Positions 9,601 to 62,010 of a stretch of 64,000 nucleotides of DNA are shown one piece after another. Every line of letters begins with the position of its first letter. Position 1 is the first letter of the stretch. This DNA comes from Eledone cirrhosa (lineage: Eukaryota): contig OZ024740.1 of NCBI GenBank assembly GCA_964016885.1, positions 286,440,001 to 286,504,000 on the forward strand, in the 5' to 3' direction. Below the pieces are notes generated by a model. The model ran no database searches, was not told the DNA's origin, and worked only from the letters and a program-made list of their open reading frames with translations. A program made the translations under genes and the position numbers.

Positions 9601-12600
9601 CTTTTATTTTGCTTTCATTCTCAATTCCCTTCTGACTTATTACATTTGTAATCTAACCCACTGCACACCTTTCTATACAAACAGACTTTTCAGTTTCATA
9701 TTCCACAATTATTCAAGCAAACTATCACACCGTATTAAATTTCATATCAAGTTTTCCAAAATCAACATTTTTGTGGTTGAATATTTTGAAACAAAACAAG
9801 TTCCTATTCAGGGTTGGTGCTAACATTACTTCAGATAGGTGCATTACGGAATTTTAAAAGATCACGATTTTATGTAAACTTATATAACTAACTTAAATAT
9901 AGAGTGGCCAATGTTAACTTGTTTTTCTTTCTCTAAGGGTCTTCACTATTTTATAAGCTATTCTATAGCACCTCATCACATGAGCATACACTCTTTATAT
10001 TAAATATATAATAATTTCATGCAATCAATATATAGCTCAATAAATATATTTGCAGCATTGTGAAAATACCCAAAGCAGTAGAAAAAGTTGTATGATGTTA
10101 TAACCTGTTATATGATTTGGTGTGGGTGAGTGTGGACTGTGTAGTGGAAAATGCAGGCTTAGTAATTTTCTAAGTCAGAATGTTGTTTCATCTGTGCCCC
10201 AGAGACAAAATGGCAAAGGTATTGCTGTGGACAATGGTCAGCAATACACACTGCAACAGCCACCCCACCTCACAGGGCTCCTTTCTCAGACGGGCTGCTG
10301 TCATTCTGATGTTATGGAGGAGATTAGCTGTAAGGGGTCTGAGGACGCCTGGGGTCTTGATGGCGACCAGCACAAAGAGGAAGAGGTCAGACATTTATTT
10401 ATTGTCCCCTGAAAGTTGATCTTGGCAGGACTTGAACTCAAGAGTGCAGGGTGATAGAAATACTAAGGCATTTAATCTGAAGCTCAAACAACTCTGCCAA
10501 TCTGACACCTTAAATAACCACTCAAAAACATTCAAAATCTGTTACATTCATTTTTCATTTATTTCATCAAATATAAGGTGGCCATACTGGTAATATGAAG
10601 AATAAATATCTAGTCTAACCTGTCAGTTGGTCATTTTTGGTGCCACAATAAAAAACACCCAGTCCACATTGTATATGTGGTTGGCATTAGGAAGAGCACC
10701 CAACCAGAAACAGTTCTGTTTGAGCAAGACATGGTCACCTGATTTGGCTTGTCTCATAATGGGACATCTCATCTAACCCATGCTAGCATGGAAAATGGAC
10801 GTGAAATGGTGATGATGATGCACCAAATTTTCATTGCACCACTATGACTTGGTCACTAGATGAAGGAATGTGACAAACATTCTGACACCTCACAAAATAA
10901 ATGTTTTTAGATGGCCAAAATAGCTATTTCACAATGTAATTATACTCACAACACACTTTATAAAAAGCTCCAGCAACAAGCATTTTAATCCTTTCATGAC
11001 TACATGCCTAATGAAATACACTCTATTGAAGAATTTTAAGGGATATACTGAAATTATTAATTATTTCATTACTAAGATAGAACTTAACATATGGTTCTTA
11101 TATAAAATTACATTGAAAGATATTAATTTAAATAAGAATCCTTCATTAGGTGGCATTTGGCAGTATCGGTAGAGGGTAAGACGCCATGCTTTCCAGCATA
11201 GTTACGTCCCTTTATGATCTGAGTTCAAAGCCCGCCGAGGTTGACTTTGCCTTTCATCCTTACGGGGTCGATAAAATAAAGTACCAGTAATGTACTGGGA
11301 TAATTGCTGGCCTTGTGCCAAAAAGTAGAAACAATTATTTCATAGAACCAGAGTCAGTTTTGGACAGGCTGGTATCAAAAGTTCTAAGGCCATTTTCCCT
11401 GCCAAAGCAGAGATTAGTCTTGCAGGCCTCACAATATGCTTCTTATTCATTATGAGGTCTTTGTGGAGGTAATCATCATCAACGTTTTACGTCTGTTCTT
11501 CCACGCTAGCATGGGTTAGACGGGTTGTCCTGTTGTGGGCAGTGCCCGGTCGGCTGACCATGCCTTGCTCATACGGAAACCGATTCTGGCTTGATTTCTA
11601 CAGCTGGATGCCCTTCCTAACACCAACCACATTTACAGTGAGTGCTGGGTGCTTTTTTCCGCCTACACGTCCACTTTTTTCCGCCTACACGTCCACTTTT
11701 TTTGCCGTGGCACCTCCACGACCACTTTGCAGTGGGGGCATATTGTCTATATGCTTCAGCTTCGGCTTGTACCAATGGAGGGTTGGGTCTTCTGTATTAT
11801 TGCGTGACGCCAGAGGTCTTGGTCGTGTGTCGTCGCCTTTGAGAGGTGTAATTGGGTAAGGTTGGCTTTTATCACCTCATCCCAGGTCTTCTTGGGTCTC
11901 CCCACTCCGCGGTTTCCATTGACTTCTAGTGCTCTGCACCTTTTTATGCAGCTGTCATCCTTCATACGCATCACATGTCCATACCAACGCAATCGCCTCT
12001 CCTGCACACAGCATTTGATTCCTCTTATGCTCAGTCTCTCTCTCAATTCCTTTATGCTTTGCCGTTCGCGTATATTACTATTACACATCCATCGGAGCAT
12101 GCAAGCTTCGTTTCTTTCTAACCTATGCAAGTCTTCCACAGACAACGCCCAGGCCCCACTACCATGTAACATTTCTGTTCATATACATGCATCATACAGT
12201 CTGGCTTTCATTTTGAGGGAAAAGCCTTTTTCAGCTAGCAGTGACAGTAGCTCCCTGAACTTCTTCCATCCCGTTCTTACCCTAGTTATTGTACTTTCCG
12301 AACACCCACCTCCACTGCTAATTCAGTCACCTAGGTAGCAGAAGCTGTCTACTGTTTCTACAAAGCCCTCCCAGAGTTTGGTGGTACTTGTTTCCTGTGG
12401 CTGTTTGCTGCTTGCTGTCCCAGCACACCTGCTACATCTGAAGCCTACATTCTTAGTTAAGCTTCCTGAGATCCCGCTACATCTCTTGTGTACCCATTGT
12501 TTGCATTTGGGGCAGAGAATGGAGTTCCTACCTACACTTTTCCTACATACTGAGCAAGGCCATTTCCCTGAGGGGATCTGGGTTCTGTTTTCTCGTCTAC

Positions 12601-15600
12601 TTACAAGGACCTTAGTCTTTGTCAGGTTGACTTTGAGACCCTTTCTTTCTAGTCCCTGCTTCCAAGTTTGGAATTTCTTCTCTAGTTCTACCATAGATTC
12701 AGCTATAAGTGCGAGGTCATCTGCATACAGGATTTCCCATGGGCATCCGGTCTTAAACTCCGCCATTATTGCCTGCAGAACTATGATGAACAGGAGAGGG
12801 CTAAGAACAGAGCCCTGGTGGACACCGACCTGTATGCTAAATTCCTCGCTATAGTCATTGTTAATCCTAACTTTGCTGACTGCTCCCCTATACATGGCTT
12901 GTACAGCTTTCACAAGCCATTCATCTACTCCTAGTTTTCTAAGATTCCACCAGATTATAGCACGGGGAACTCTATCAAAGGCTTTCTCGAGATCGACGAA
13001 TGCCAGGTAGAGCGGGTTACTTTTTGATAGGTACTTTTCCTGTAACTGCCTCAGAAGGAAGAGGGCATCAGTAGTGCCTCTTCCTGGCACAAACCCAAAT
13101 TGCATCTCAGCTAGTTTCACCCGGTCCCTAATCAACTGTGCTATAACTCTTTCTGTTACTTTCATGACCTGGTCCATCAGCTTTATACCTCTATAGTTTC
13201 CTCTATCTATTGCATCACCTTTACCTTTGTAGCAGTTGACAATGATGCTACTGCACCAATCCTTTGGTATGACACCTAGTATTACCTGGTTAACAATACG
13301 TGTGGTTATGGTGTGACCTATCGACCCAGATGCCTTCAACATCTCGGCAGCTATACCCGGTTGACCAGTTGTCTTCATATCTTTGATTGCCTTACTTACT
13401 ACACTGCTGCTGACTTGTACTGCGGGCCCCTTATTAGGGTCTCTTCTTCCCATGCATTCTCCTCATTTAGTAATCTATCATAATGGCTCTTCCACGCATC
13501 TTTCTTCTAAGCACTTGTGAGGGCAAGCTCACCTTTATCATTCTGGATACACTTCTCTCTGACACACTGCCTCGCAATCTTGAACACCTCCTGTCTCTGG
13601 CCCTCGTGTTGCAAAACATGCTTAAATTTTCTATCCTCTGCTTCCCTCCTAGCTAAGTATACTTGTTGCCTAGCTTCCCTCCTGGTCTCTATGTAATGTA
13701 CTCTGCTTCCCCCGTTCTTCCATTCTTTCCATGCCTGTCTCTTGGCCTTAACTGCCTCGTCTACCTTATTGTTCCTCCACCAAGTCACTCTCCTCCTGCC
13801 TGTGGTCTTACTCCAGCCCCAGATCTCATCCGTCTCCTTTAGTAAGTTATTATTTTTTAGGAACTCCCAGTGCTCTTCTACATTGAATGTCTCTGTCTGT
13901 TCTTCTTTACTGTCACAGGTGTTGAGTAAAATATCTTTAAATCTGTTACTGGCTGAGGGATCTTTCAGCTTCCAGAACTTTCTTCTCCAGGTTGGTCTAG
14001 TTCTGACCGTGAGGTCGCTGACAACTAAGCTATGTTGGGAGGTACATTCCTCACTAGGGAAGGCTTTTGTGTTTACGACCGTCCATCTGTCACGTCTTCT
14101 GAAGAGGATAAAATCTATCTGACAAGAATGCTCCTCTGATCTATAGGTGATCAGATGGTTGTTGGGTTTTTTGAAGTTTGTGTTACATATCGACATGTCA
14201 TTGGCGTCACAGAATTCTAGAAGCCTGATGCCTTCTTCATTTCTTGTGCCAACCCCATGGCCTCCATAGAAGCCGTCACGGTGTTTACCTATGTGTCCGT
14301 TAAAATCTCCTGCAATGATTAGGAAGTCATTGTCGTTTGTTAGAGCAGTAGTGTGCATTAGGGACTCGTAAAACATTACCTTAAGTTCGTCTGGCAACCC
14401 CGATTGGGGTGCGTAAGCAGATATTATTGTGGTAATTGTTTTATTCAGGAATAGTCTGAGTTTAATGATTCTTGCATTCACCCTGGTCACTGAGATTACC
14501 TTATCTACCCACTTGTCAGCTAGTAGGATACCTACACCACCCATCCCATCGTCATTTCCCACCCAGAAAAATTTGTAGCACCGACTTTTTCCTACAAGGA
14601 CTCTAGCAGACTCTCCTCTCGATCTAGTCTCTTGCATACAACATACATCAATTTCCTTTCGCTTTAGCATCTCTACAATTTCTCCTGCTCTTCCTTTCAT
14701 TGTGCTTACATTGATGGTTCCAACTCGGAGTTTTGGGCATTTGTCAACATTCGTGGGAAAGATAGGTAGCCATCATGGCCTATAGCATTTCAGGGCAAAA
14801 TAAACCGATACGAGTACCTATATTAGACAAGGCAAAATGTTAGGATTTCGAAGGGAGTAGATGACTTCATAGAGGCAGCGAAATGATAAATACAACAATA
14901 ATAATAATGTAAGAGAGAGAGGAAAGGAGTAGATGACTTCGTAGAGACAGTCATAGTGGCAGCATATCTTTCTTGGAACCAACCCTTTTAGTGCACTCAA
15001 AATTCATGCAAAGATATAGTACCTATTGTAATCTATGAGGGTTGGTTGAAAAGTTCATACACTGACTATGAAGGAGTGATGCTAGAGCTGTGAAATCATG
15101 CATGCATTAATTTCAATTCTTCTTATCAGTAACTGCATTGTTTCTTTCCAGGGGCTATGTTGAAAAATAAATCTGATTTGGTCATTCCATGAGAGTATCT
15201 TGGTCAGCCTTTTCAGTCGACTCTCAAACATATATATCAGCAGAGAAAAATAGACATACATACAATAATAAAAGATATAAAAGTAAATTTATTATGTTCA
15301 GCTAATATTTTACACCATACCTCACTTGAATTCCAACAAGTATCATCTCGACAGTCAAAGAGGCCACTTTTACCAAATTGTTTCACGTCACGGTTCAATA
15401 CAGAACTAACTCTAAAAGTAAAAATTTACATTGCCATAAATGTCTGCAAAACACACACAAGAAAAAAAGAAAAAAGAAATCCATTTTAAACTGTTTTATT
15501 ATTATATTTCTAATAAAAAGCACTGCCTATGATTTTCAAATCATTTTGAAAATAACTGGGAAGGATTTAGTCAAATAACTAACATTCTCATTAGTAAGTT

Positions 15601-27039: not shown

Positions 27040-30000
27040 CATGCTGTAAAATGGAGGGGTAGAGAGGGCCCTTGAGTCTAGTAAGACATCCTCTCTAGTG
27101 CTGGTGGCACAAATAAAAGCACCCAGTCCATGCTGTAAAGTGGCGCTGGTGTTAGGAAGGGCATCCAACCAGTGTATCAATGCCAAAATGCTTATCGGCA
27201 TAGCAACAAATAGGAACAACAAAATATGAAGACGTCGCATCTCAGAGTTACAACACTTAATGTTGGCACTCTCAGAGGTAGATCTGCTGAAATAGCGGAG
27301 ATGCTGGAGAGAAGGCAGGTGGATGTGTGCTGCATGCAAGAGGTGAGATGGAGAGGTGCCTCTGCGAGACTAGTCGTAGGCAAACGTCTTAGCTATAAGC
27401 TATTCTGGGTAGGTAAGGATGATGGGTTAGGGGGAGTAGGCATTTTCCTGACTGAGAAATGGATCAATAAGACAATAGAGGTAGTTCGAGTTAGTAATCG
27501 AATAATTAAGCTTAGATTAGTTGTAGGTAGGAGACTACTTACAATCATCTCGGCCTATGCTCCCCAAGCAGGCCTAGGCAAAGATGAGAAAGACTGCTTT
27601 TGCAAACAACCGCAATGACAGAGGATGGAGACATCGTTATGCTAGCAGGAGACTTCAATGGTCATGTTGGACAGCTCCAGGATGGTTACACTGGGGTACA
27701 TGGTGGGCACGGTTACGGTTCAAGAAATGAAGAAGGAGTGAGACTTCTTGAATTTTGTGATGCAGGTACATTGACTATTTGCAATACAAACTTCCAGAAA
27801 CCTGCCAATCACCTAATAACCTACAAATCTGGTGAGCACATAAGCCAGATTGACTTCTTACTAGTTAGGCAGCGGGACAGGCAGATAGTGTCTAATACCA
27901 AGGCATACCCTGGGGAAGAATGTACCCCACAGCATCGGTTAGTTGTTAGTGATATCTCAGTAAGCAAGAGATGGAATGAGACATATAGGAAGGTGTGGAG
28001 AAGAAAGGTCTGGAAGCTAAAAGACCTTTCACTAAAATACAAATTTAGGAAAGCCCTTCAAGATGTAAATGACGAAAAAGAAGACGATTTAGAGACGTAT
28101 GACATAGATAATAACTGGAATTTCTTACGTGACAACTTGCTGAAGGCTACTGATGAAACTTGTGGCTGGAGCAGAGCTCCAACCAGACAGAGAGTGACCT
28201 GGTGGTGGAACAGCACAGTAGATAAGGCTATTAGAGACAAAAGACTAGCATGGAAGGCTTGGAAAAAGGGTGGGAGTAGGAAAGAATATACAGCCACTAA
28301 GAGAGAAGCTAGACATCAGGTGTACTTAGCACGCAGGGAGGCAGAGAGTAGGAGGTTTGCCAATGTTCTGCGACGGGAAGATCAGAGGCGTGCGGTGTTC
28401 CACATTGCAAGGCAGTGTGTCAATGCGAATCAGGATGTTGTTGGAGATAAATGTGTCCGGGATGATGCCGGTGTACTTAGTGTCACGAATGATCAGAAAA
28501 AGGAGGCCTGGAAATGTCATTATGAGAGACTGATGAATGTGGAGAACAAATGGGAGAGAGAGAAATTACCCTTGGTAGATCCGACAAGAGGGACCAGCTA
28601 TTGAGATTGACGAATATAGGGTCCAAGAGGCGATTAGGGAAATGAAAAATGGTAAGGCTGCCGGACCAGCGGGAATAGTTGCTGAGATGCTGAAGGCATC
28701 AGGGGACGTAGGCACTAAACTGGTTGCACGCATCATCAATTAGGCTATATATGGTGGTGTCATACCCAAAGACTGGTGCAGCAGTATTCTCATAAATTGC
28801 TACAAAGGTAAAGGGGATTCTTTGGAGAGGAGCAATTATAGGGGTATAAAACTGATAGATCAGGTTATGAAAGTGGCAGAAAGGATTTTAACACAACTAA
28901 TTAGAGAAAGGGTCAAACTAGATGAGATGCAGTTTGGTTTTGTGCCTGGGAAGAGTACAACAGATGCCCTCTTCTTGGTGAGACAATTGCAAGAGAGGTT
29001 CTTAGAGAAGAATAAGCCACTATACTTAGCCTTTGTTGACCCAGAGAAGGCCTTTGATAGGGTACCCCGATCTGTCATCTGGTGGTCCCTAAGGAAGCTA
29101 GGTGTTGAGGAATGGCTTGTGAGGACAGTGCAAACTTTGTACAGAGGTACTCTCAGTAAAGTCAGGGTAGGAATGGAGTTTAGTGAGGAATTCCAGATAC
29201 AAGTAGGAGTACATCAGGGTTCGGTCCTCAGCCTGCTCTTGTTCATTATAGTCCTCTAAGCCATAACAGAGGAGTTTAAGACTGGCTGTCCATGGGAACT
29301 TCTCTATGCTGACGATCTGGTTCTTATAGCAAAGGAGCTAGAGAATAAATTCTGGCTATGGAAACAGCAGTTGGAAGCAAGAGGACTGAGAGTGAATCTA
29401 GCTAAGACAAAAGTGTTGATGAGTAGAAAAGAGGACAAAACCCTGATTCCGTCAGGGAAATGGCCATGTTCGATATGCAGAAAAGGAACTGGCATAAATT
29501 CTATAAAATGCACACAATGCAGATCCTGGGTACACAAGAGATGTAGCGGGATAGCAGGCAAACTAACAGGTAGGGAGAAATATGTATGCAGTAGATGTAC
29601 AGGGAAATTAGATAGTAGAAGTCACATTGATAGACACATTTTTCAAATGCAGGAGGGTGCTATAGAAGTGGTGGATAGCTTCCGGTACCTAGGAGATCAG
29701 ATTAGCATGGGAGGAGGGTCTTCCGAGGCCATAGTATCTAGAATAAGGACGGGTTGGAAGAAGTTTAGGGAGCTGCTTCCTCTGTTGACGAAGAAGGGTT
29801 TCTCCCTGTGTATGAAAGGCCGGTTGTATGATGCCTGTGTGAGGAGCGCGATGCTGCATGGTAGTGAGACATGGGCAGCATCTGCAGAGGATATGCGACG
29901 GCTGGAGAGAAATGAGGCAAGCATGCTCCGTTGGATGTGCAGTGTAAATGTGCGTGAACGACCCAGCATAAATGTGTTGAGAGAGAAACTGTGTCTGAGA

Positions 30001-30295
30001 GGGATAGAATGTAGTGTATGGGAGAGGAGACTGAGATGGTATGGACATGTGATGCGCATGGAGGATGACCGATGGGTGAAGAAGTGCCAGGAATTGCCAG
30101 TTGAAGGAAGACGTGGTAGAGGTAGACCACGAAAAACATGGGCGGAGGTGGTGAGAACAGACCTCAGATCATTGAAGCTCACGGTGGAGATGACGAAGGA
30201 CCGTGACGAGTGGAGAGATGCTGTGCTGAATAAGACCCGTCCCACCCTTGCAAGCAGGGAAAAGCGGACGTAAAATGATGATGATGATGATGATA
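27040..30295 (+). mobile_element. Full-length RTE-clade LINE (APE-RT-PHD) with a few frameshifts and stops
   Basis: ORF pieces 27226-27618, 27600-28604, 28822-29259 and 29371-30273 give TLNVGT, GDFNGH, RT motifs, a C4HC3 finger and RRLRWYGHV. The stop is followed directly by a (GAT)n tail. Confidence 0.95.
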
Positions 30296-44210: not shown

Positions 44211-44529
44211 TAAGGGAATTGAAAGAAACCTAATAACAAACAGTTTTATATGTAGGCGAGAAAATTATAACTTTAATTTCATTAAACAACTGTTTTCATA
44301 AATTAATTGTTAATTAAAAAAGATTGTTATGTAACTCAATGGATACAGCATGGTCAAATAGTAGAGATATTTGCTTTTCAAACAATAGGTTCCAGGTTTG
44401 ATCCCACTGCGTGGCATCTTGTTCCAGTTTTGTTTACTACATCAGGTTAATCCAAGTCTGTGAATGAAATTGAGTAGAGTGAAACTATTTGGAAGCTTAT
44501 TAGATGAATTGTACATCATTTTCACTATT

Positions 44530-46215
44530 GAAGACTATTGAAGACCAGAGTGTACTGTCTCCACCACCTATGACACCGGATTCTATTACAACTATGGAAT
44601 TTACACCTGCAATGCTACAATGTCACCTTAAAAATAAACGCAACCATGCCTCTTCTGGTCTTGATGGTGTTATGTACCTGCTTCTCAAACGTGGTGGGTA
44701 CTTCCTGCTGCACCAGCTATCATGCTTCTTCCAATTCTGTCTGAACAACGGTGCTACTCCAGAACAGTGGAAAACTGCCAGTATCATTCCTCTGTTCAAA
44801 AAGAGTGACCGCACATCACCTGTGAACTATCGTCCAGTCAGTCTTACTAGCTGCATTGCCAAACTGATGGAATCCTGTGTCAGAGAAACACTTTGGAACT
44901 TCTGGAACTCTCACAGTCTTATCCGGCCCTCGCAATTTAGATTTATCCTTAACTCCAGCTGCTGTGATCAACTTATCAAGTTTCCTGAAGACATCACCCG
45001 GATCACTGATGGCGGCTCATGGGTGGATGTTGTTTACATCTTTTGCTAAAGCTTTCAATTCTGTGCCACACAAAAGGCTTATGGCAAAACTCTCTGCAAT
45101 GGGTGTGAAGGATGATCTTTTTAACTGGTTGAAGTCCTTCATTTTCAGTCGAAGAGAGGTAGTCACGGTTCCAGGACAGCATTCCTCACCATATGAAATG
45201 TCATCTGGTGTACCATAGGGATCTGTTCTTGGCCCCCTTTTGTTTGTGGCATATATTAATGACATAGATGCCAACTTAAAGAATGCCACAGTACTGAAAT
45301 ATGCAGATGACATCAAGCTGTACCTTGAGATAAAAAGGACAGATCCTGAACACTATAGATCTTGCCAGCAATCTGACCTGGACACAATGCAACAATGGAT
45401 CACAGACTGGCAACTCAAGCTAGCTGTGGACAAGTGCACCACCATGCATTTTGGGAGTAAAAACTCAGCGTCCGCATACTCCCTCCACAACACTAATATC
45501 AAGAAGTCTTCTTGTGAACGTATCAAGAAGGCCGAGGGTGTCTTAGCATCACTCAGCAAGACCTTTGTCAGCCGCTCTCCAGCTATCTATTTAAAGCTGT
45601 ACATAGCTATGGTGCGGCCACACTTAGAATTTGCATCACCTGTCCGGAACCCCTATTTTGCTCAGAACATTGACCGCCTGGAAACTGTTCAGAGACGTGC
45701 AACCAAGCGAATACCCTCCATCAGGCATCTACCATACTCTGAACGCCTTGCTTCCCTGGGCATGGATACATTGAAGCTCCGACGTCTGGCAACTGACTTG
45801 GTAGACACCAGCGAAATTATTAACCATCTTGCCAACAACAACCCTGAGCATCTTTTTGATTTCCATGTGTCTAACACACGTGGACATGTCCACAAAGTCA
45901 GAAAGCAGCACAGTTCCCATGACTTTCAGAAACATTTTTTAATGTTCAGAGTTGCTGAAGCATGGAACAAACTACCTGCATCAGTTGTTAGCTGTCGAAA
46001 CACTGCATCCTTTTAAAACCTCCATGCTTCCTGAGATTCACCAACACTAGACCTAATATTCCCCCTCCATACACACACACACATGTATATCATGACTCAT
46101 ACACTATTCACTTCCCTGACATTTGTATATTATTCTATGTACTATACATGCACCTTTGATGAGTTGTAGTGCACCTGAGCACTTTACACAATAATTTCAT
46201 TATTATTTCATTATT
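44530..46215 (+). mobile_element. 5'-truncated CR1-like LINE
   Basis: SSGLDG, WKTASIIPLFKK, NYRPVSLTS, AKAFNSVPH, SGVP.GSVLGP, KYADDIKL, VRPHLEFAS, TRGHVHK and AWNKLP; ATT-rich tail. Confidence 0.92.
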
Positions 46216-48636: not shown

Positions 48637-50570
48637 CTAAGGGGTCGCTACAAGTTCCAAGACATCGTTTTCGAAGGGTAGCAATGCTGGGTTACTTGGA
48701 GGGTTATTATAAGTTTTAAACCCAAATTTATCCTGTTTGTTGTTCGCTTTTTCCTGGTTATCGAAATAAAAGGCACGCCAATGCAACCTTTTAAGGAACA
48801 AATCCGTTTTCTGTATCAGAAGTTTTAGGTAAGTCTTCCTGCTAGGTACGGGTATGTTCTTTGTAAAAATATTCAGGTGTTGTTTCTGCATGATGAATAT
48901 AAGTCAATAGAGTGCTCACCCTTAACGGGATCTTCTGAAACTAAAAAAATCAATCTGTTAACGCAGAAGTAAATATTTCGAAAAACGTTGCAACTGAAGG
49001 AAAACAAAAAGACGATACTTTGGTTCGTGAAGACGTTCCCTGGCAATGAACGGAAAAAAGCGAAGAAAATACGTCGTTATGTGGATCGGTAAGAACAAAT
49101 ACACGCAAACACAAAACCACATTTATGGTATAAATGAAGTCGTAGACTAATATTCTATTTAGGAAACAGAATGATTCTCGGCTTCAGAGTTAAGAATAAT
49201 GTAAATAAATTAGTAGAACGGAAATGACAGAGGTTATTAAAATCAATAATAATTAAATATATACATACACGTATCTATATAAGTACATACACGTGCGTAC
49301 GCGGAAACACCCGCCATGCATGCATATACATGCACGACCACATAAATACGCGCACACATACATAAACCCACGCGACACATGTACCTGCACACATAAAAAC
49401 GTATACACCAAATACAGATAAAAATGTATATATGTGTGTGTGTGTGTGTGTGTATACACATAATTATATAAACGTATATAAATATACACACATAAATACG
49501 TATAGAGCGCATGCACACACATACCTACAGGTAAAAACACATATGTTCACAAACGTATGTCAACCAAAACACGATACACACATATACACACCTACATACA
49601 TGCAAACACGCATACATGCATACACACACAAACACAAAATACACATATACACATAACTATATACACATATATCAGTATATATAATATAATATATACACCT
49701 AAACAAATACAAGCATATATACGTACGAGAAAGTATACGAACCTTCACAAAACATACGTGTAAGATATACTTACCTATACAAATAAGTAATGGTATAAAC
49801 TTAAAATATACTTAGCTACCACATCAAGACGTAAATTATCCGTGTATTGTTCGTACTATCCGTTAGGGTATAATGTGGGGCTGTAATACAGGAAAGTGTA
49901 TTGCAATTTGTGTTTACAAGCAGAAATTGCTCAGATTTTTTGTTTAAGATATGGTCATTGGCATAGAGTATTTCCAGGGCTTCAGCGGCACAAAGATCGC
50001 ATGGTCTTTTATTTCCGTTATACGATCTAGTTTTAGCTAGGATCTCCCAGTGTAACCTATATTGGGTGTGGTTGTCTTTTAGACTCCAGATATAAGCTGA
50101 AAGTGACGTCATATTCCTTCTTAAAGGGTTAAGAAAAGAATGGGTGTGCATGTAAAGACGCTGCTTGAATCTATTGCCGGTTAACCCTATGTATGCCCCA
50201 CGGGACGTGGGTATTTCGACCTTACATTTGTAGACAATGTTACTGGAGAGGCATTTCTCGGATAGAGGGCAGTCAACCCGATTCCTACAATTACAGTTAG
50301 TACTTGCTACCGGGTTGCACGTGTTCTTACGGCTAGGTAATTTAGCTAAATTTGAAGCAATGATGTTATGTGCAAAGTTAGGGGTCGTAGAGTAAGATAT
50401 TTTAAAGGTATTTCTATTAAAAATGTTATTATATTTATGTGCTGAGGGGAAATGCTTCTTAATAAGGGAGAGAAAGATCTTAGCTAATGGTGTGGCCACC
50501 TCCATTTTATATGGTGGGTTATACCATGTAATGTGTCGGGATCTATTTTTCCTTGGTCTATGCTCACACT
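48637..50570 (-). mobile_element. Penelope-like element (PLE), partial tandem: C-terminal GIY-YIG portion followed by the ORF N-terminus
   Basis: 49816-50570 encodes ITWYNPPY, IFNRNTFKISYS, CNCR..CPL..C, VYKC..YIGLT..FKQR..H, LSAYIW.LK and C.LC..E..I..LN (GIY-YIG). 48637-48891 encodes KNIPVPS..YLKLLI.K...FLKRLHWRA..FGFK..PP..FENDV, a typical PLE ORF start. Confidence 0.85.
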
Positions 50571-50574
50571 TAGT

Positions 50575-51779: not shown

Positions 51780-54700
51780 TCCTCATGCACAGCCCACCTA
51801 TGTCTTCGTTCAACCCGTCGGTGGCCCAATGTTTCGATCGAACTATCACCGGCAATTGCGGATTGATAAAGTTGCCACCACTTTAACCTAGTCCATTCTA
51901 AGTGGCGGTGGCATGCGTCGAATGACTAAGAGACCTGCTTGGTGAAACGACTATGTGACAACCGGTCAGCCTTCGACCTCTCTTTCTCCACCAACTTCGG
52001 CACGCACAAGAGGAGCTAACTTGTCCGCACCTACCCCCTCCTCCTCTTCACCGCAGATTCCGAGCAAATTCAACCCAGCCAACCCCACCACCCAACCTCC
52101 ACTCTAGTCCCACCATTAGAACCACTGCTGCCTCCTTTACCAATCGTATTCCAATGCTGGCCCTCTACTGCCAGCTGCTGCAAGCCCACCACCTGATTGT
52201 GCTCTCTGTGCTCGCACTAGCCAGTACTTAAAGACAATTAAATGTTACCTATGCCACACAAGCTACCACAGAAGCTGTGTCGGCATCACCAAAGCTCAAG
52301 CCGAAAGGCTTCAATACTGGACCTGTAATCAGTGCCACTTCAGCTCCGACGTATTCTGTGGGGATGCCCCATGCTTCGATGACCAACTCTCTACCGAGGA
52401 CTTTTCCACAGCCCTCCAGGGTTTCTCCAAATCAAAGCTTGTTAACCAGATCCCTAAGGGAGCTCGGAATAGCTTTGCCCGTGCCCTCTCTAATTTATTG
52501 AAAAACGTTTGCTCGTCCAACAATAGGTCTGACTGGCAGACATTGTTTTTGTTTCCTCTCATCTCTCCTCATGTGCACAATACGAATTCGGGTTCCCTCA
52601 CGTCCTCTCTCAAACGGCAGTTCCAGCTGTTTGAGTCTACCCCATCCACATCTCACCTCAGTTCGACATCGAGCCCGGTGTCCACCAACAGACAACCGGT
52701 AGACCTCAAGCGAGAGGTCAATGCCAAATTCAGCAAATTTGACATTTAAGGGGCTGTCCGTCTCGTCTCTTCTCTGTCCTCCCTTGCTCCGTCCAACTCT
52801 GATTCTCTTGAGCGACTGAAAGAGAAGCACCCATCGGCACCCCCAGATGATCAGCTACACTGGTTCGAGCCACCAGAATACTCAAGACCGGTTTACACCA
52901 CCGATATCATCAGAAAGGCGATTTCATCCTTCCCCGCTGGGTCAGGCGCAGGAATTGACTGCCTTCGTCCTCAACACCTCAAGGATGGTATCTCCTTATC
53001 GGCCGGTGACGCCGGACTCGAGCTCTTTGAGAGTCTGACTCGGTTTGTGAATCAGTTCTCTTCAGTGAACGTTCTCCCGTTCATCCGCCCACTGTTCTTC
53101 GGTGGGAAGCTATTTGGTCTCACCAAGCCCAACGGAGACCTGCGGCCCATTGCAGTTGGTTGGCTGCACCCTTCGCCGCCTCACTGCAAAGGCGTGTTTG
53201 CTGTTGGTCTCTGACTCACTGGCGGAGGAATTCTCCCTCATCCAGCTGGAGGTGGGCACCAAGTTGGGATGTGAGGCTGCTGTCCACGCTACCAGAGCCT
53301 TTACCAACTTGCACTCCTCGTCCCCCAAGGTCATCCTCAAACTTGACCTCAGGAACGCCTTTAACTCCGTCATCCGCGATGTCGTCCTCGGCTCAGTAAG
53401 AGAGAGGGTTCCACAACTCTATCCCTTTGATTGGCAGGCTTATCGGGAGCCCTCCTACCTCTCTTTCGGTAACCAAATCATCACCTCTGCCTCAGGAGTC
53501 CAACAGGGTGACCCACTTGGGCCCGCTCTGTTTGCACTGGGCATTGATGACATCACCAAGATGGGGGTTGAGTTGGACCTCAATGTTTGGTACCTCGACA
53601 ATGCTTGTTTGGGAGGAACTCCGGTTATGGTTCTCACCACTGCTAACAAAATGGTCGAGGAGCTTGGCCGCTGGGGTCTCCAGGTCAATAGCCCCAAATG
53701 TGAGTTCTGGATCCTCAACCACCCGGCTTCTCAACACCAACAGCTAATTGACCTGTTCGCAGAGTCCTTCTCTTCCATCGCGGTGCCTCCCCTGTTGGCT
53801 TGGTCCTCATTAGGAGCCCCAATCACAGACCTTGCCTTCGAGTCAATCTTCCAATCAAAGATGGCTGGCCTTGAGCAGCTGCTGAAGAATATTGAAGTTA
53901 TCGAACCTCATCAAGGTTTCTTCATACTCAGGAACTACCTGTCTATTCCTAAGCTTCTGTATCTGCTCAGGGTCAGCCCCTCTCACAGATTTCCGTCCTG
54001 CCTCCAACGCTTCGACGACATAATCTTTGAGAGACTCGAGTGCCTGGTCAATGTTAGACTCTCTCCAGAGTCCCGCGATCAGGCTGCATTGCCCAAGCGA
54101 TTTGGGGGTCTTGGTCTTCGTAAGTGTTCGTCCCTCTCTCTCCCCTGCTTCCTTCCCTCCACCCACGCTTGCTCCACCATGGCGAGCAGCATCCTCTCCT
54201 CTCCAACATGGACTAGTTCCAACAGGGAGTTGGGTGAAGCTCTCCAGCAATGAAGTGAGTTGGGCTTGTCTCTTCCTGTTAAGGTGGAGGGCAGTCGAAG
54301 TCAGAGAACTTGGGACAGCATAAGTTCGAAGGGCACCTTCGACTCCCTCTTCATCCAGTCAGATCAGTTTGCAAGATGCCGCTTACTATCTGCCTTACTA
54401 AATACTCAGACGACTGGGTTGATGTCCTACCCGTGGCCAGCTCAGCCTGGACGAACTTCGTGTCTCCATCGCCCTCAGAGTGGGAGCTGACATCTGCATG
54501 GATTTTAGGTGCCAATACGGCAAACTCCTTGACTCCACGGTCTTTCTTGCCGCCTGAATGCCGGCCACTTCGCGCGTCACACGGAGCTAAACCTCATTCT
54601 GAAGAGAGCTTTGGCCCAGGCGAACATCCCCTCAATCTTAGAACCATCTGGGTTGTCCAGAAGTGACGGCAAAGGACCTGATGGCCTTACCCTGTGCCTC

Positions 54701-55400: not shown

Positions 55401-57400
55401 ACGGGTAAGGCGGCTGGGCCTTCGGAAATAGTTGCTGAAATGCTGAAACCATCTGGAACGGTGGGACACACTATGGTCACCCGGATAGTAAACCAAGTCA
55501 TACAGAATGGGGTCGTTCGAAGGACTGGCGTAGCAGCATCATCATTAACTGCTACAAGGGTAAAGGAGATGCTCTAGATAGGGCTAACTATAGAGGCATT
55601 AAATTAATCGACCAGGTCATGAAGGTCACAGAAAAAGTAATAGCGCAACTAATCAGAGAGCGAATTGATCTAGATGAAATGCAGTTCGGGTTTGTGTCAG
55701 GTAAAAGTACCACAGACGCTCTTTTCATTGTACGACAACTACAGGAGAAGTACCTAGCTAAAAGTAAACCCCTATACTTAGCTTTTGTTGACTTGGAGAA
55801 AGCCTTTGACAGAGTCCCCCGCTACATTATCTGGTGGGCTCTTAGAAAACTAGGTGTTGATGAATGGCTTGTGAGAGCTATACAAGCCATGTATAAAGAA
55901 ACAGCCAGCAAGGTTAGAATTAACAACGAATATAGTGAAGAGTTTAGCATAAAAGTTGGTGTTCATCAGGGCTCCGTCCTTAGCCCCCTCCTATTTATTA
56001 TTGCTCTTCATGCTATAACAGAGGAGTTCAAGACCGGCTGCCCATGGGAACTCCTATACGCAGATGATCTAATGCTCATAGCTGAATCAAAGGCTGAACT
56101 AGAGGAGAAATTCCAAATATGGAAGCATAGCCTAGAATCAAAAGGCCTTAAAATTAACCTGTCTAAGACTAAAGTTCTAGTTTGTAGGAAGGAAAATAGG
56201 GCACCAGTCCCATCTGGGAAATGGCCATGCTCAGTGTGTAGGAAAGGAGTAAGCAGAAACTCCATTTTATGTCCCAAATTCAAAGTATGGGCACATAAAA
56301 GATGTAGTGGGATCACAGGTAAGCTAACTAAGAATATAGATTTTATATGTGGCCGGTGCTCTGGTGCAATAAGTAGCAGCAAGTGCCCACAGAATACTAG
56401 CTCATTCCATTGCACAGATGGTTCTATAGAAATAGTGGACACCTTCCGTTACTTGGGTGACAAAATCAGCAGTGGTGGAGGGTGCTCTGAAAGTACAGTA
56501 GCTAGAGTCAGAACGAGATGGAAAAAGTTCAGAGAGCTTATACGACTATTGGCCGCTAAAGGGTTCTCTCTAAAAATGAAAGGCAGGCTGTATGATGCCT
56601 GCATACGAACAGCAATGTTGCATGGCAGTGAGACCTGGGCATTGTGTGCAGAGGATATACGCAGACTGGAGAGGAACGAAGCTTGCATGCTCCACTGGAT
56701 GTGTAATAGCAATATACGTGAACGGCAAAGCATAAACGAACTAAGGGAGAAATTAGGTATAAGAGGGATCAGATGCTGTTTACTCGAGGGAAGACTACGT
56801 TGGTACGGTCACGTGATGCGCATGAAAGACGACAGCAGTATAAAAACGTGCAGGGCGATAAAAATAGACGGTAGCCATGGAGTAGGCAGACCCAGAGAAA
56901 CCTCGGACGACTTGATAAATTCCGACCTCACACACTTACACCTCTCCAAGACAATGTCACTGGACCGAGATCTTTGGCGCTACACAGTAATACAGAAGAC
57001 CCGCCTTGCCTAAGTACAAAGCGAAACCTACAGTCAGTAGGCACCTCTAACAAAAATACATCCCCGTCCCACTACCCCCACCCCATCCATACCACCCCTT
57101 CCAATGTAATGTTATGTTGGTACCACAACATCCAGTCCGAAACAAATGAGGTCATGTAGGTGTCATGACAAAAAAACACACAGTCCACGCTGTAATGTGG
57201 CCGTATAGGTAACACGGTAAAAACCTCCCAGTCCACACTGTAAACGTGGTTGGTGTTAGGAAGGGCATCCAGCCATAGAAAACTCGCCAGACAGTCCTAT
57301 ACGAGCAAGACAACCAATCTTGCCTCAAGTGGGAAAATTCCCGTCCAAACCCATGCTAGCGTGGAAGATGGACGTTAAACGATGATGATGATGATGATGA

Positions 57401-57404
<4 letters not shown>
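55398..57404 (+). mobile_element. 5'-truncated RTE LINE with open RT-PHD-C-terminal ORF, flanked by (TA)n
   Basis: ORF 55619-57013 (464 aa) is uninterrupted; long 3' UTR; (GAT)n tail; (TA)n on both sides. Confidence 0.95.
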
Positions 57405-57445
<41 letters not shown>

Positions 57446-57515
57446 CGCAACAAGTAAACATTAAACAATCTTTTAAATAAATTAAAATACGATTTAAAAA
57501 TTCACCTGCTCTAGT

Positions 57516-57595
57516 GCTGTGACCGACGGTTTCACTTATCAAAAGATTGGAAATTCAGAGAATTTCCAATGGAAAGAATCAGCTCTTCAGACAGC
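57516..57595 (-). ncRNA. Type I hammerhead ribozyme, copy 1
   Basis: GCUGU-CUGAAGA-GCU..[AUUGGAAAUUC ucu GAAUUUCCAAU]..AGU-GAAA-CCG U CG-GUC|ACAGC. Predicted cleavage between 57521 and 57520. Confidence 0.88.
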
Positions 57596-57983
57596 TATTT
57601 CCAAACCACAGGGCACAAAGCCTCATGGCTAGTAAATATATCGCTTTCTGCCCAATGCATGAGGTCAGGCCGTTAAAGTGACACACACATAAATAGGCCG
57701 TAAGAAAAAGCGGGAATTATAGACTAGTTGATATTTCATGTTACTAGAAATAGCAGCACGATACAACATTTTTTTCCTCTACATAGAAGGAGAATACAAA
57801 TAAATGATATAAATATTACAGTAGGTACTAAGTACCCACGGAAATATACATGGTGTCTATAAGAGTTGTTGTTCAATGGTACTAATTTGAGATACCAGAA
57901 CTTTTAAAATGAGCGCAACAAGTAAATATTAAACAATCTTTTAAATAAATTAAAATACGATTTAAAAATTCACCTGCTCTAGT

Positions 57984-58061
57984 GCTGTGACCGATGGTTT
58001 CGCTTATCAAAAGATTGGAAATTCAGAATTTCCAATGGAAAGAATCAGCTCTTCAGACAGC
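57984..58061 (-). ncRNA. Type I hammerhead ribozyme, copy 2
   Basis: GCUGU-CUGAAGA-GCU..[AUUGGAAAUUC u GAAUUUCCAAU]..AGC-GAAA-CC AUC G-GUC|ACAGC. All core nucleotides are canonical. Predicted cleavage between 57989 and 57988. Confidence 0.9.
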
Positions 58062-59289
58062 TATTTCCAAACCACAGGGCACAAAGCCTCATGGCTAGTA
58101 AATATATCGCTTTCTAGATCTGTTTCATGTATTTATGTTTTCTGGTGTTTGAGGATTGGGGTGGGTTGAATATGGGTGGAGGTAATTCACCAAGGAGTTA
58201 TAAAGAACTGGGATTCTTTGAAAAATATTTTTGGCATCATTGGGTTATTAACACCTGTCAAATCCATTAGTGGTGATGATAGTGACATTAGTAGCAGCAG
58301 CAGCAGTTGGGACCCCTGTGGTAGTGGCAAGTACAGCCACAACATTAGTATTTATGGTGGACACCACCATCATCATCATACATACGTATGTATGCACACA
58401 GACACTCACATATACATATTTAGAAATAAGTATTTTAGAATATGTTTAATAGAGGATATATATAGATATGTGTTGAGAATGTATGTATTTGTGTATTATA
58501 TCACAGAAGTCACCATTGAAGATGTTAAAAGCAATGTTGTGGTTAAATAGCATCATACGACGTTATAATGTTTTTATATATAATTTATTTACAAACCAAT
58601 TACAAAGGTTTAGCTGGCATGCCATAAGAAAGGAATAAACAAATTAAGAGTTTAAGGAGATACGGTCAACTGGCTGAAGCGTTAGCCAGTCCCGTAGTGA
58701 TATTTGTTGCTACATAGAGATGTTTACCTTAACGATGTCGAGCTGCAAGAGAGAGTTTATCGAAAAGAAGCAAGAATTTTTCCCTCTGGGCGGAAGTTGA
58801 GATACATCTTCCTATGCTGGTAGTGATTGGCTGAACTGAGCCAAACAACGTACGGAGAATGTATCCATGCGCCCTCGGAATGTATGTCGCTACAATACCC
58901 CCTATTTAGCCTGGAAGGCGATACATAAGATTGAATTAGCAGGAAAACGCTGAAAGAGAGCCCATCAATGAAAAAATTGAACAAAAGAATGCATGCAAGA
59001 AGAAAAATTGTAAGTGAGACGCTAAGGCTTGTTGAGCCGCTGTGTCAAAGGACTAGCTGTTTTACTATTTATGCATGACCACCCGGGGTCTAACAGAAAA
59101 CGGATAAAGTCTGACATGGGCAAAGTTGATGTTCTTGCATTAAATGTTAATTATGGTAATTGTTTTACCAGAGCTGTGTAGCTGTTATGGTAAGTGTTGT
59201 AACAGAGCTGTTATCAATGATGATGCTGTTCATGTTCTACCAGAGCTGTATAGTTGTTATGGCAGGAGATGATGGGTAGGCGAGAAATT

Positions 59290-62010
59290 GTCAGCAGCTG
59301 CCACCTGCGAAGTGCTGGATGGTGCCCACTTCTATAGCGGATAAGGTGGGTGAGATCAGCCTTGTCTATAGCGTTTTCGACTCTCTCGTCCGGCGGTTTG
59401 CTGAAGGTTTGGATAGTTCTCTCGTGGGTGAAGGGTGCTGGTCTACACTCCCTTTTGATGAGAGATTGTCTCGTGGCATGGTCAGCAGGCGTGTTAGGTT
59501 GTGGAAGTGAGGAGCCCTGCTTTGCGAGTTTGTCTGCTAGTTCATTCCCTTGTAGATTACAGTGACCAGGGACCCATACAACAGTTAGGTTTTTGTCTTC
59601 TCCGAGGTTGTTAACTGCTGCCTGGAGTTCTGTTATAGTGGGATCTTTGGGAGCAGATTTGTCGACTGCCTGAACTAGAGATTTACAGTCGCAGATGATG
59701 GTCGCCGAAGTCCATTTTGCGTTATTGGTTTGTAACCAGTGGATGGCTTCTCTAAGCACAGCTTTTTCTGAGTGAAAGGAGCTACTTCTAGCGCCTGTTG
59801 CTGTACGCCACTCATGGACGACCTCACCATCTTTCATGATGACCATACCAGCTCCGCCATTGGTAGTACCTTCTTTTGTAGACCCATCGGTGTAGATTTG
59901 AACATCTGACGGGGCGAGGGTTGATATGGTGTCTAAGGCTGCCGTCAGTTGTTGGTTTGCGTTTTGAGACTTTGAGGTATTGGTGTAGATTACATGTATC
60001 GGGGGTGGGGTTAGCCATGGGGGAGGTTCTGGGTCTTTGGGTAGGGGTGTCGAGGGGATAAGATGTAGTTGTGCCAGGTTCTTGGATTGGGTGCCTCTCC
60101 AGTCTGTCTTTTTGAGGCTTTTTCGGCAGCTGGTATTGAAAACTTCGTCCGTCTTTGGTAGGTTTGCCCAGTGATCAGCTTTAAGCAGTGTAAATGTCGA
60201 GAATCTGAAGGAGAGCGTAGGTAACTGGGATTCTGCTAGCACAGTGTCGGTCGGCATGGTTCTGACTTGGCCAGTGATGGCTCGAGCCACGTCTCGTTGT
60301 ACTCTTTCGAGCTTGCCGATGTTGGTGGCAGACAACCAGGGTGTCAACGCTGGGACCGCATATTCTGCGATGCTTCGTTGTACGGCAGTGTAGATTTGAC
60401 CAAGATCCGCCTTCTTCCAGGCCCACGTCGTTCCTGCTACAGTTTTTAGTAGGTTCGTTCTCGATTGGATAGTTCGACATACCTTCTCGACATGTTCCTC
60501 AAAGGTTAACTGCCGATCGTATGTGATGCCCAGGAATTTTGGGAAAGGGTTGCAAGAAAGTTGCTTCCCGGCTATTGCGATACTGGGCTGCCACTTTGCC
60601 TCTGCTCCATCAAGACAGAAAAATGCTGTCTCGCATTTATTAATATTGAGCTGCAGTCTAGCTTCCTTGCTCCATTCAGCTACCTTGTCAACCTCTTTTT
60701 GTAGTAGGACGGCTACTTCATCTTTATTCCTTCCGTTACACGCGATCGCCAGATCATCTGCGTAGGCGCTGACGTGGGTAGATTCTTCAAATCCATCTAG
60801 GAGTCTGTTTATGTAGACCATGAAGAGGATTGGAGACAGGACGGCCCCTTGTGGAATGCCTTCTTTAAACACTCTGCTCCTACCTGTCGTTGAGTTAAGA
60901 TGGACTCTTGCGGTGCGGTTCACGAACCATGTCGACAACCATTCAACAAAAGGTAGGGGAACACCAAGCCTGAGCATGCTCTGCAGTAGTCCGGTTCTCC
61001 AGATACGATCGTACGCCCTGCTAAAGTCGAAAAAGGGTGGCTAGGGTGCGTTTGCGCTGCGACGACTGGAACCCATCCGAGATGAATTGGGAGAGTCGGA
61101 GGCATTGATCGGTTGTACTGCGTCCTTTCCTGAAACCCGCCTGCCAGGGACTGAGAATCGAATGCTCCTCGAGCCACCATGACAGACGGGTAGCAATCAG
61201 TCTTTCAAGTAGTTTTCCTATTGTTGAGGTCAGTGATATTGGGCAGTAGCTCCCTACTTCTGCTGGATCTTTGCCTTTTTTGTGGAAATGTATGATTGTC
61301 GCCGTCCGCCATGACTGAGGGCACCAATTTTTCGTCCAACTATGGTTTAAAATTTGCAAAAGTTCAATTTGAATAGATTTGGTTAGGTGTTTGAGAAGGT
61401 CTGGCGCTATTTCATCTGGACCTGCTGTTTTACGTGCTTTGATCTTTTTAATTGCAGCGTTGAGTTCATCCAGGGTGAAATCGGCTTCTATCCTTTGCCT
61501 AGGGGAAAGGAGCAGGTCTTTCATTTCTCTTTTCAATAGTCTTCCTGTCCTTCTTGATTCTTTGTCGCTCTTTCTTCCACTTATAGTGGCATACTCTCGT
61601 ACAAAAGCGGCAGCCTTCCCCCGGTCGCTGGCGTAGACAGTACCTTCATATGTCAAAGATTTCCCAGTTGACTTTGAAGCTTTGCCACATAATGACTTTA
61701 CCATGGCCCATGCCTGCTTGGTATCTTTCGTGTCTGAGATTTTTGTAAGTGATTTCGACACGCTTCCCTTTTTCCTTCTTCTGTGAGTCTTGCAATTCCT
61801 TTGCAGGTCTCCATCCATTCAGCACGGTTTCTTCCCATGTCACGCCGCAGTTTGTTACATTTACGGATTAAGCTTTTTAGTTCTGGATTCATCCAGGGTG
61901 TCTCCCGTGGACGGACGACTTTAAGTGGCACCGCTTTGTCCTCCGCCTTTTTTAGGAGAACGGATAGGTCAACCAACTTGTCGGAATGGGAAGTTTGTTC
62001 AGTTACCTGA
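59290..62010 (-). mobile_element. I-group (Ingi/Nimb-like) LINE with RT and RNase H, disrupted
   Basis: RT: KTAGPDEI, SYCPISLTS, QAGFRKGRST, GIPQGAVLSP, AYADD, KFLGITYD. RNase H: IYTDGS, SSFHSE, ICDCKS, WVPGHCNLQGNELADKLAK. No APE domain or C-terminal CCHC is seen. Confidence 0.88.

Follow-up and report, generated by a model that had tools for sequence, protein, structure and literature searches.

Animal non-LTR retrozymes, in the published descriptions (PMC7229834; bioRxiv 10.64898/2026.07.22.740005), are non-coding head-to-tail repeats of a few hundred nucleotides with low GC content and one type I hammerhead ribozyme per unit; they have no LTR, PBS or PPT, they co-occur with Penelope-like elements (PLEs), and their helix III is weak and palindromic. 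PLEs were named as their likely movers in Cervera 2020 (PMC7229834) and in a 2020 review. Li 2026 (bioRxiv 10.64898/2026.07.22.740005) argues for a PLE origin from co-occurrence and from similarity to PLE pseudo-LTRs (pLTRs); in Xenopus, 24 of 57 retrozyme families were found to have pLTR homology.

Insertions of PLEs are characterized by partial tandems, an inverted truncated copy, a tail of 30–40 bp on one end and a bias toward microsatellites, according to Craig 2021 (PMC8557442) and Arkhipova 2013 (PMC3846280). In vitro, the tail corresponds to the segment that separates two internal reverse-transcription starts within a stem-loop, and both strands of the target are cleaved by a protein that is predicted to dimerize (Frangieh 2024, PMC11167929). 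Non-autonomous Chlamys elements such as MRC1 (PMC8557442) are described as non-coding elements with pLTRs and head-to-tail insertions that are moved by PLE enzymes, that resemble their partners at the 3′ end and that belong to a clade mostly without hammerheads. As for the ribozymes, Perreault 2011 (PMC3088659) reports loop-loop pseudoknots in about 40% of hammerheads and a tolerated U10.1-U11.1 pair.

The repeat family described here was found through one insertion in a 64-kb window (the whole stretch of DNA analysed) of the 3.0-Gb assembly of Eledone cirrhosa. It has all of the animal non-LTR retrozyme features listed above. As far as the sources consulted allow comparison, it is unlike the described animal retrozymes in that its copies are mostly dispersed, 5′-truncated and inverted, end at two fixed internal points and sit in TA targets, and in having a bipartite stem II of about 52 nt with a predicted, covarying Watson–Crick loop-loop helix. 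With endonuclease-positive PLEs (Poseidon of Anolis, PMC11167929; Naiad and Neptune, PMC8557442; Adineta Penelope, PMC3846280) it shares partial tandems, an inverted 5′-truncated copy, a one-end tail, microsatellite targets, a ribozyme in the terminal repeat, an intron-like segment and putative starts beside a stem-loop; unlike them, it has no ORF, its tail is 105–113 nt rather than 30–40, and its unit is a self-closing monomer. It is like the Chlamys elements in being non-coding and inserted head to tail, but no sequence-sharing partner was found. Its ribozyme, like the hammerheads of Perreault 2011, has predicted Watson–Crick pairing between the loops of stems I and II, but it is a repetitive animal type I ribozyme with an extra 11-bp helix past the contact and no match to an Rfam model.

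Results

The insertion in the window

Between the direct repeats at 57441–57649 (209 nt) and 57909–58115 (207 nt) there are 3 substitutions and one 2-nt indel, in agreement with an earlier note on this DNA, which had described two near-identical repeats of about 208 bp. On the minus strand, each repeat reads GCUGU-CUGAAGA-GCU...AG(C/U)-GAAA-CC(G/A)UCG-GUC-ACAGC. A descriptor-type search for type I hammerheads on both strands of the 64-kb window yielded exactly these two matches, which confirmed the tandem type I hammerheads 468 nt apart on the minus strand; cleavage is predicted after 57989 and 57521. The 259-nt spacer had been called unique, but it was found to be the remainder of a family monomer.

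The whole insertion (57441–58115, minus strand) is a single copy of 1.44 monomers (monomer positions 340–468, 1–468 and 1–80). It is 5′-truncated, and its 3′ end, the short fixed end of the family, is joined to a target run of (TA)n followed by (CAT)n at 57380–57440, with no discernible target-site duplication. Three rare variants are present in both of its repeats. The 468-nt monomer (57521–57988, minus) spans the two predicted cleavage sites and has no ORF longer than 35 aa.

In the 5′ hammerhead (copy 2; 57984–58068, minus), the loop I strand GGAAA lies at 58068–58064 and stem I is formed by 58061–58057 with 57988–57984; the core consists of CUGAAGA (58056–58050), GAAA (58001–57998) and GUC (57991–57989), and loop III carries a G-to-A change. 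The 3′ hammerhead (copy 1; 57516–57602, minus) has GGAAA at 57602–57598, stem I at 57595–57591 with 57520–57516, CUGAAGA at 57590–57584, UUUCC at 57575–57571, GUC at 57523–57521 and a G10.1-U11.1 pair. A Watson–Crick helix between loops I and II is predicted at 58037–58068 (minus), where GGAAA (58068–58064) would pair with UUUCC (58041–58037).

A long AU-rich hairpin (57916–57979, minus), predicted in all four subfamilies, lies directly 5′ of the short fixed end, which within the full monomer falls at 57909 (+80, minus) and is the putative reverse-transcription start 1. From there a "tail" of about 105 nt (57803–57908, minus) extends to the long fixed end (about +187, putative start 2), before which a hairpin GUGGGUAC-UUA-GUACCUAC is located (57839–57821, minus). 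An intron-like segment occupies 57779–57973 (minus), from AG/GUGAAU to pyrimidines followed by UGUAG; the alignment has similar motifs in the same places in all four subfamilies.

The window also contains LINE-type reverse transcriptase fragments at 55439–57013 (plus), 59214–61818 (minus), 52120–54253, 44504–46016, 27588–30273 and 12323–14772, several with PHD fingers and one with RNase H, and an integrase fragment (H2C2 and rve) of an LTR-type element at 1807–2502 (minus).

A dispersed family of four subfamilies

The genome-wide copy check proposed in the earlier note showed a dispersed family, with 119 matches from the 40 scored of 2612 first-look candidates; first-look candidates should not be read as copies. 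Genome-wide, an exact 24-base core pattern matched 192 times, and its reversed control had no match. The copies fall into four subfamilies, Y, O, D and E. The window insertion belongs to Y, to which O is 85%, D 69% and E 52% identical. Subfamilies D and E were found through chance neighbours in fetched loci and gave 923 and 1634 first-look candidates, respectively. In all four, the monomers (461–487 nt) close on themselves. That the monomer size is atypical, as had been suggested, holds against the range of 150–450 nt in PMC7229834 but not against the 51–972 nt in Li 2026. No Met-to-stop frame longer than 78 aa was found in 8 monomers, and no PLE ORF is continuous with the element in any fetched copy. 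When four monomers were folded as circles, their predicted energies were 23–34 kcal/mol below the mean of 12 shuffles each.

A 13-kb tandem array with 28 ribozyme matches was also found (G000:C3, about 162.363–162.376 Mb; L142:1013 to L143:4342). It begins in (TA)n and stops at +80, the short end, before (TA)n; its 24 whole units average 91% identity, and their divergence is mostly star-like with some shared core deletions. The array could be a rolling-circle concatemer that was later expanded locally. The tandem joint was also present in contigs, of unspecified kind, from three runs of one sample, which are silent on RNA and cannot show circles. The family combines non-coding head-to-tail units, a type I hammerhead in each, multiple copies and PLEs in the same genome, and at the level of sequence it corresponds to an animal non-LTR retrozyme.

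Other hammerhead families (L091, L092, L103; L094–L101, L107–L110) were encountered, many of them adjoining TA runs; one has a long stem II and a palindromic CCCWWGGG loop III, and L110 adjoins histone H2A/H2B frames.

The hammerhead core, its helices and their folding

The core C3 U4 G5 A6 N7 G8 A9 / G12 A13 A14 A15 / U16 H17, three helices and an open helix I were found, as in type I hammerheads. Core and helices were tallied in 136 copies preselected for an intact core (35 Y, 38 O, 33 D and 30 E) and registered by motifs, with a one-base register offset applied to O. Stem I occurs in four versions (GCUGU/ACAGC, GCUAU/AUGGC, GCUUU/AAAGC and GCCUU/AAGGC), each paired over 5 bp, the weakest column being pair 2 in subfamily D (22 of 33 paired). 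Stem IIa has 7 positions, fully paired in E beyond a U-U and with mismatches in Y, O and D; the U-U at 10.1-11.1 in D and E is as in axolotl HHR_Amex2. Beyond it, compensated changes occur in D within an apical helix of about 11 bp. A further helix, of 5–6 bp, can form between the internal loop of stem II and the strand on the 5′ side of stem I; it reads GGAAA/UUUCC in Y, O and D and GAGAA/UUCUC in E, and shifted registers pair more poorly.

A simple alignment of 33 copies, in which O was out of register, gave 92% paired cells and 47 double changes for stem I and the loop helix; none of 500 shuffles reached this, and slid controls gave 44–56%. Double changes occurred at 5 of 11 pairs, and the independent events are few because there are only four, related subfamilies. 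Stems I and II and the loop I–loop II helix covary between subfamilies, as the earlier note's check for covariation had required. The Rfam hammerhead models, also named there as a check, matched neither the window region nor four related loci, probably because of the long stem II.

Each repeat had been said to fold as a complete hammerhead. The core and helices stand, but the minimum-energy fold of longer fragments is a different one: a constrained hammerhead fold lies 3–11 kcal/mol above the minimum in 6 of 6 copies (10–11 in the window copies), in a calculation that has no pseudoknot term. Folding z-scores of −1.7 to −2.5 give weak support on their own. A proposed extension of stem I (UUUGG/CUAGA) was rejected, as 19 of 35 copies of the same subfamily have UAUGG and the pairs adjoining stem I are mismatched.

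Loop III is self-complementary in all four subfamilies, with calculated self-dimer energies of −11.3 to −16.6 kcal/mol, which points to dimeric cleavage; the palindromic or weak helix III would fit the dimeric mode of Cervera 2014 and Cervera 2020 (PMC7229834). The differences between the window copies had been thought to fall in loops or to keep pairing, but not all are neutral: G10.1-U11.1 replaces G-C in copy 1, and the G-to-A change in copy 2 lowers loop III self-pairing from −11.3 to −3.9 kcal/mol; copy 2 also has a 2-nt deletion at the apical loop. Because each window ribozyme has a CpG-type lesion and their heterodimer is predicted at −8.3 kcal/mol, the window locus may be impaired.

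The pairing of GGAAA with UUUCC could also be read as a nested hairpin that masks the CUGAAGA core and holds the ribozyme off, rather than as an activating pseudoknot. Such a hairpin does form at minimum energy in each of the three subfamily Y copies folded. In contrast, the minimum-energy folds of O, D and E retain stems I and II and leave the loop II strand largely free, although in E the loop I strand can pair locally instead; in all four subfamilies the helix begins right past the seventh stem II position, as expected of a loop-loop contact, and the frequency of pseudoknots of this kind given in Perreault 2011 (PMC3088659) also speaks for the pseudoknot. We therefore regard the masking hairpin as doubtful, though a real possibility.

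Fixed ends, TA targets and inverted pairs

Alignment was used to class 132 distinct loci, of which 73 belong to Y/O, 29 to D and 30 to E, each locus being counted once; intact copies are over-represented because the loci are the best-scoring or first-listed ones and not a random sample. Copies comprise 0.2–1.9 monomers, and their 5′ ends are spread along the monomer (variable truncation). The 3′ ends are fixed: among the 86 single copies, the short end (about +80 in Y) accounts for 76 and the long end (about +187) for 8, which leaves 2 that end elsewhere. For the 52 Y/O singles these numbers were 45 (about +80–85), 5 (+180–195) and 2, with a TA run at the 3′ end in 47 and at the 5′ end in 33. 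The two fixed ends are 105–113 nt apart, and each is just 3′ of a predicted hairpin.

At 46 loci two copies lie head to head, and where both ends could be classed, one copy almost always ends short and the other long: 35 loci were short+long, 1 short+short and none long+long, with one end unclassified at 10, several of which lay just beyond the cut-offs. By subfamily, short+long made up 15 of 21 loci in Y/O (no short+short, no long+long), 15 of 16 in E and 5 of 9 in D, which also had the one short+short. Motif-based end calls for D and E (6 short+short, 3 long+long) were dropped in favour of alignment, as the motifs also match inside monomers.

The family therefore displays 5′ truncation, partial tandems, an inverted copy, a one-end tail and a microsatellite target, the features of a non-autonomous PLE. 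In view of the PLE traits in Craig 2021 and Arkhipova 2013 and the internal starts of Frangieh 2024, the two fixed ends are interpreted as reverse-transcription start sites.

Different TA-targeting elements were repeatedly seen back to back in one TA run (L121, L139, L148, L216).

PLEs in the genome and a possible partner

A 5′-truncated PLE, a separate element of the family that we call A, is present in the window at 48653–50574 (minus), with a GIY-YIG C-terminus (frame 49816–50574) and CxC..C linker, a pLTR and the next ORF start. We call it Neptune-type by its linker, as described in Craig 2021 (PMC8557442), with Nematis as the alternative. Its pLTR runs into the ORF start at ...AAGG/GTGAGC, unlike other copies; a spliced junction was considered and rejected, as full-length copies have no AG acceptor there, and the junction is probably a microhomology deletion. 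Family A also has a hammerhead-like CAGAAGA-UCCC/GGGU-GAAA motif with one core position changed.

Three PLE families, A, B and C, are abundant (74607, 59673 and 47492 overlapping first-look candidates), with open frames of 745, 785 and 714 aa, respectively. Pfam and PDB sequence searches with the PLE ORFs returned nothing useful; the nearest atlas clusters of the family B protein have HTH_animal and GIY-YIG. Family B is probably recently active, as many of its copies (L292, L145–L174) are 97–100% alike in the queried endonuclease part and several have 785-aa open frames. The autonomous family A has TA-run ends at two sites 92 nt apart, and 6 of its 6 pairs are short+long. Family B has two TA-joined ends 113 nt apart, with 1 short+long and 2 long+long pairs as provisional calls of a motif scan.

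The PLE at 48.6–50.6 kb had been put forward as a candidate partner, but it has no nucleotide similarity to the element beyond chance. Nor was a partner with a shared pLTR found in families A, B and C (30 loci each), where only short AT-rich chance words matched the monomer. A short-stem-II pattern gave 20 cores that belong to other families or are deletion variants, none shown to be continuous with a PLE ORF. The ribozyme of family C (L182, L194, L204), with CUGAAGA, a 7-bp stem II, a CC-NNN-GG stem III and a 5-bp stem I, has the layout closest to that of the retrozyme, without sequence similarity.

The intron-like segment

All four subfamilies have a donor-like GURA(A/G)U about 13–17 nt past the cleavage site (damaged in 2 of the 8 monomers aligned) and a pyrimidine-rich acceptor-like site near +210, and both fixed ends fall between them. 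No spliced genomic copies were found in subfamilies Y and O, a result that is uninformative as to whether the intron is real; the segment is a putative intron and a lead only.

Discussion

We are confident that the family is a non-coding hammerhead-bearing repeat, likely a non-autonomous PLE (an animal non-LTR retrozyme), and likely copied in trans by a Neptune-type reverse transcriptase-endonuclease that targets TA. This was in essence the earlier retrozyme or non-autonomous Penelope reading, which is now supported by the dispersed copies, the tandem array, covariation in four subfamilies and the PLE integration signature. Several points weigh against it: none of the three PLE families examined provided an autonomous element with this pLTR, the hammerhead fold lies above the minimum in all copies folded, the motif scan of family B provisionally gave 1 short+long and 2 long+long arrangements, cleavage occurred in only 1 of 9 predicted dimers in Li 2026 (bioRxiv 10.64898/2026.07.22.740005), and the 5′ ends at the cleavage site (5 of 15 loci, see below) hint weakly at a partly cleaved linear template over a circle. 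An autonomous PLE was rejected, as no ORF with reverse transcriptase and GIY-YIG is present in the fetched copies or monomers. So was a plant LTR retrozyme, which has type III hammerheads in true LTRs around unique sequence and 4-bp duplications; here the hammerheads are type I and the repeats are a tandem overlap.

A cycle can be proposed in which a multimeric minus-strand transcript would be made and then cleaved by two of its ribozymes acting as a dimer, joined through their self-complementary loops III, with the monomer perhaps being circularised. A PLE protein would then nick (TA)n DNA and start reverse transcription at +80 or about +187, internal positions immediately 3′ of a hairpin in the RNA, where the ends are observed. 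The cDNA would be copied back over an intact ribozyme junction, giving the observed 0.2–1.9 monomers with variable stops, and use of both DNA strands, with one cDNA per site, could produce the head-to-head short+long pairs.

The putative start sites are only 80–187 nt from the 5′ end of a cleaved monomer, and a linear monomer cut at both ends would give copies of only 80 or 187 nt; most copies cross an intact ribozyme, which implies that the template was either circular or retained at least one ribozyme uncut. We rate the chances of a circle as about even. We give somewhat lower odds to a linear multimer that stems from a tandem source, for instance the 13-kb array, and is left uncut or only partly cut, with circles having no role in spread. 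Unprocessed RNA was the main in vitro substrate of Frangieh 2024 (PMC11167929), where ribozyme mutants had no effect on insertion, and a tandem array does exist. Of the 15 loci whose 5′ end is joined to TA close to the ribozyme, 5 begin at +1, the cleavage site, and 1 at about −2, and four such copies extend from about +1 over one full monomer and on to the following short end; however, +1 starts with AT, which merges into a TA run, and the excess is not significant because other AT sites drew 2–3 loci. The duplicated parts of a copy also argue against a multimer, as they differ by 4.8% within a locus but by 7.8% from the median locus elsewhere, a pattern seen at 30 of 33 loci, with the nearest other locus usually closer (2.6%). 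Common polymorphisms make up only 23 of 269 discordant sites, and the array units are only about 91% alike. This within-locus likeness, which was absent in subfamily E (2 of 5 direct loci), is consistent with a single template that was copied twice and also with a homogeneous dimer.

It is quite improbable that the copies are 5′-truncated pseudo-LTRs of an autonomous PLE that has escaped our searches, even though PLE insertions are mostly short truncated 3′ ends, family C has a similar ribozyme layout, and the ribozyme has the PLE-type shape of Cervera 2014 (helix I of 5 bp, helix II of about 7 positions, palindromic helix III). Upstream of each ribozyme, among the loci examined, there is a preceding monomer head to tail and never an ORF; whole monomers of 461–487 nt close on themselves in each subfamily; and the array holds 28 ribozymes. 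A satellite spread by duplication or recombination of DNA, with an inert ribozyme-like motif, is largely refuted and the least probable of the explanations weighed here. The shared deletions of the array and one unit pair 99.6% alike do indicate local amplification within it. On many contigs, however, the copies carry footprints of retrotransposition, namely 3′ ends at fixed points, 5′ ends at variable ones, TA targets and inverted pairs that are asymmetric; the array itself has TA-run boundaries and stops at the short end, and the helices covary.

Our literature search, which was partial in coverage, found no account of the present family, and none of a retrozyme with two fixed ends; the supplementary lists of Cervera 2020 and Li 2026 may hold related motifs. 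The retrozyme class and the one-sided tail are already known. Relative to the earlier arguments from co-occurrence, ribozyme type and pLTRs, as given in those papers, what is new are footprints at the level of the insertion: internal ends at fixed points, an asymmetric tail, TA targets and truncation. The 35-to-1 count of short+long pairs in a non-coding passenger constrains the mechanism of PLEs and fits the two internal starts and predicted dimer of Frangieh 2024 (PMC11167929), and the four subfamilies provide natural compensatory changes for a hammerhead form that Rfam misses.

A bolder reading, which we put forward as speculation and think unlikely to hold in full, is that the copies preserve in the genome the traces of Penelope chemistry acting on a non-coding circular RNA. 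A dimeric Neptune-type enzyme would make two cDNAs on one ribozyme-made circle, from two hairpin-marked sites about 110 nt apart and one per nicked (TA)n strand, which would give the near-strict short+long pattern; as the sites would be intronic, only unspliced RNA would be copied, and the ribozyme would be a new pseudoknotted, dimer-acting type I form missed by databases. If this were true, a non-coding RNA of 470 nt would offer a minimal natural substrate with which to study how PLEs transpose and for what reason their introns are kept.
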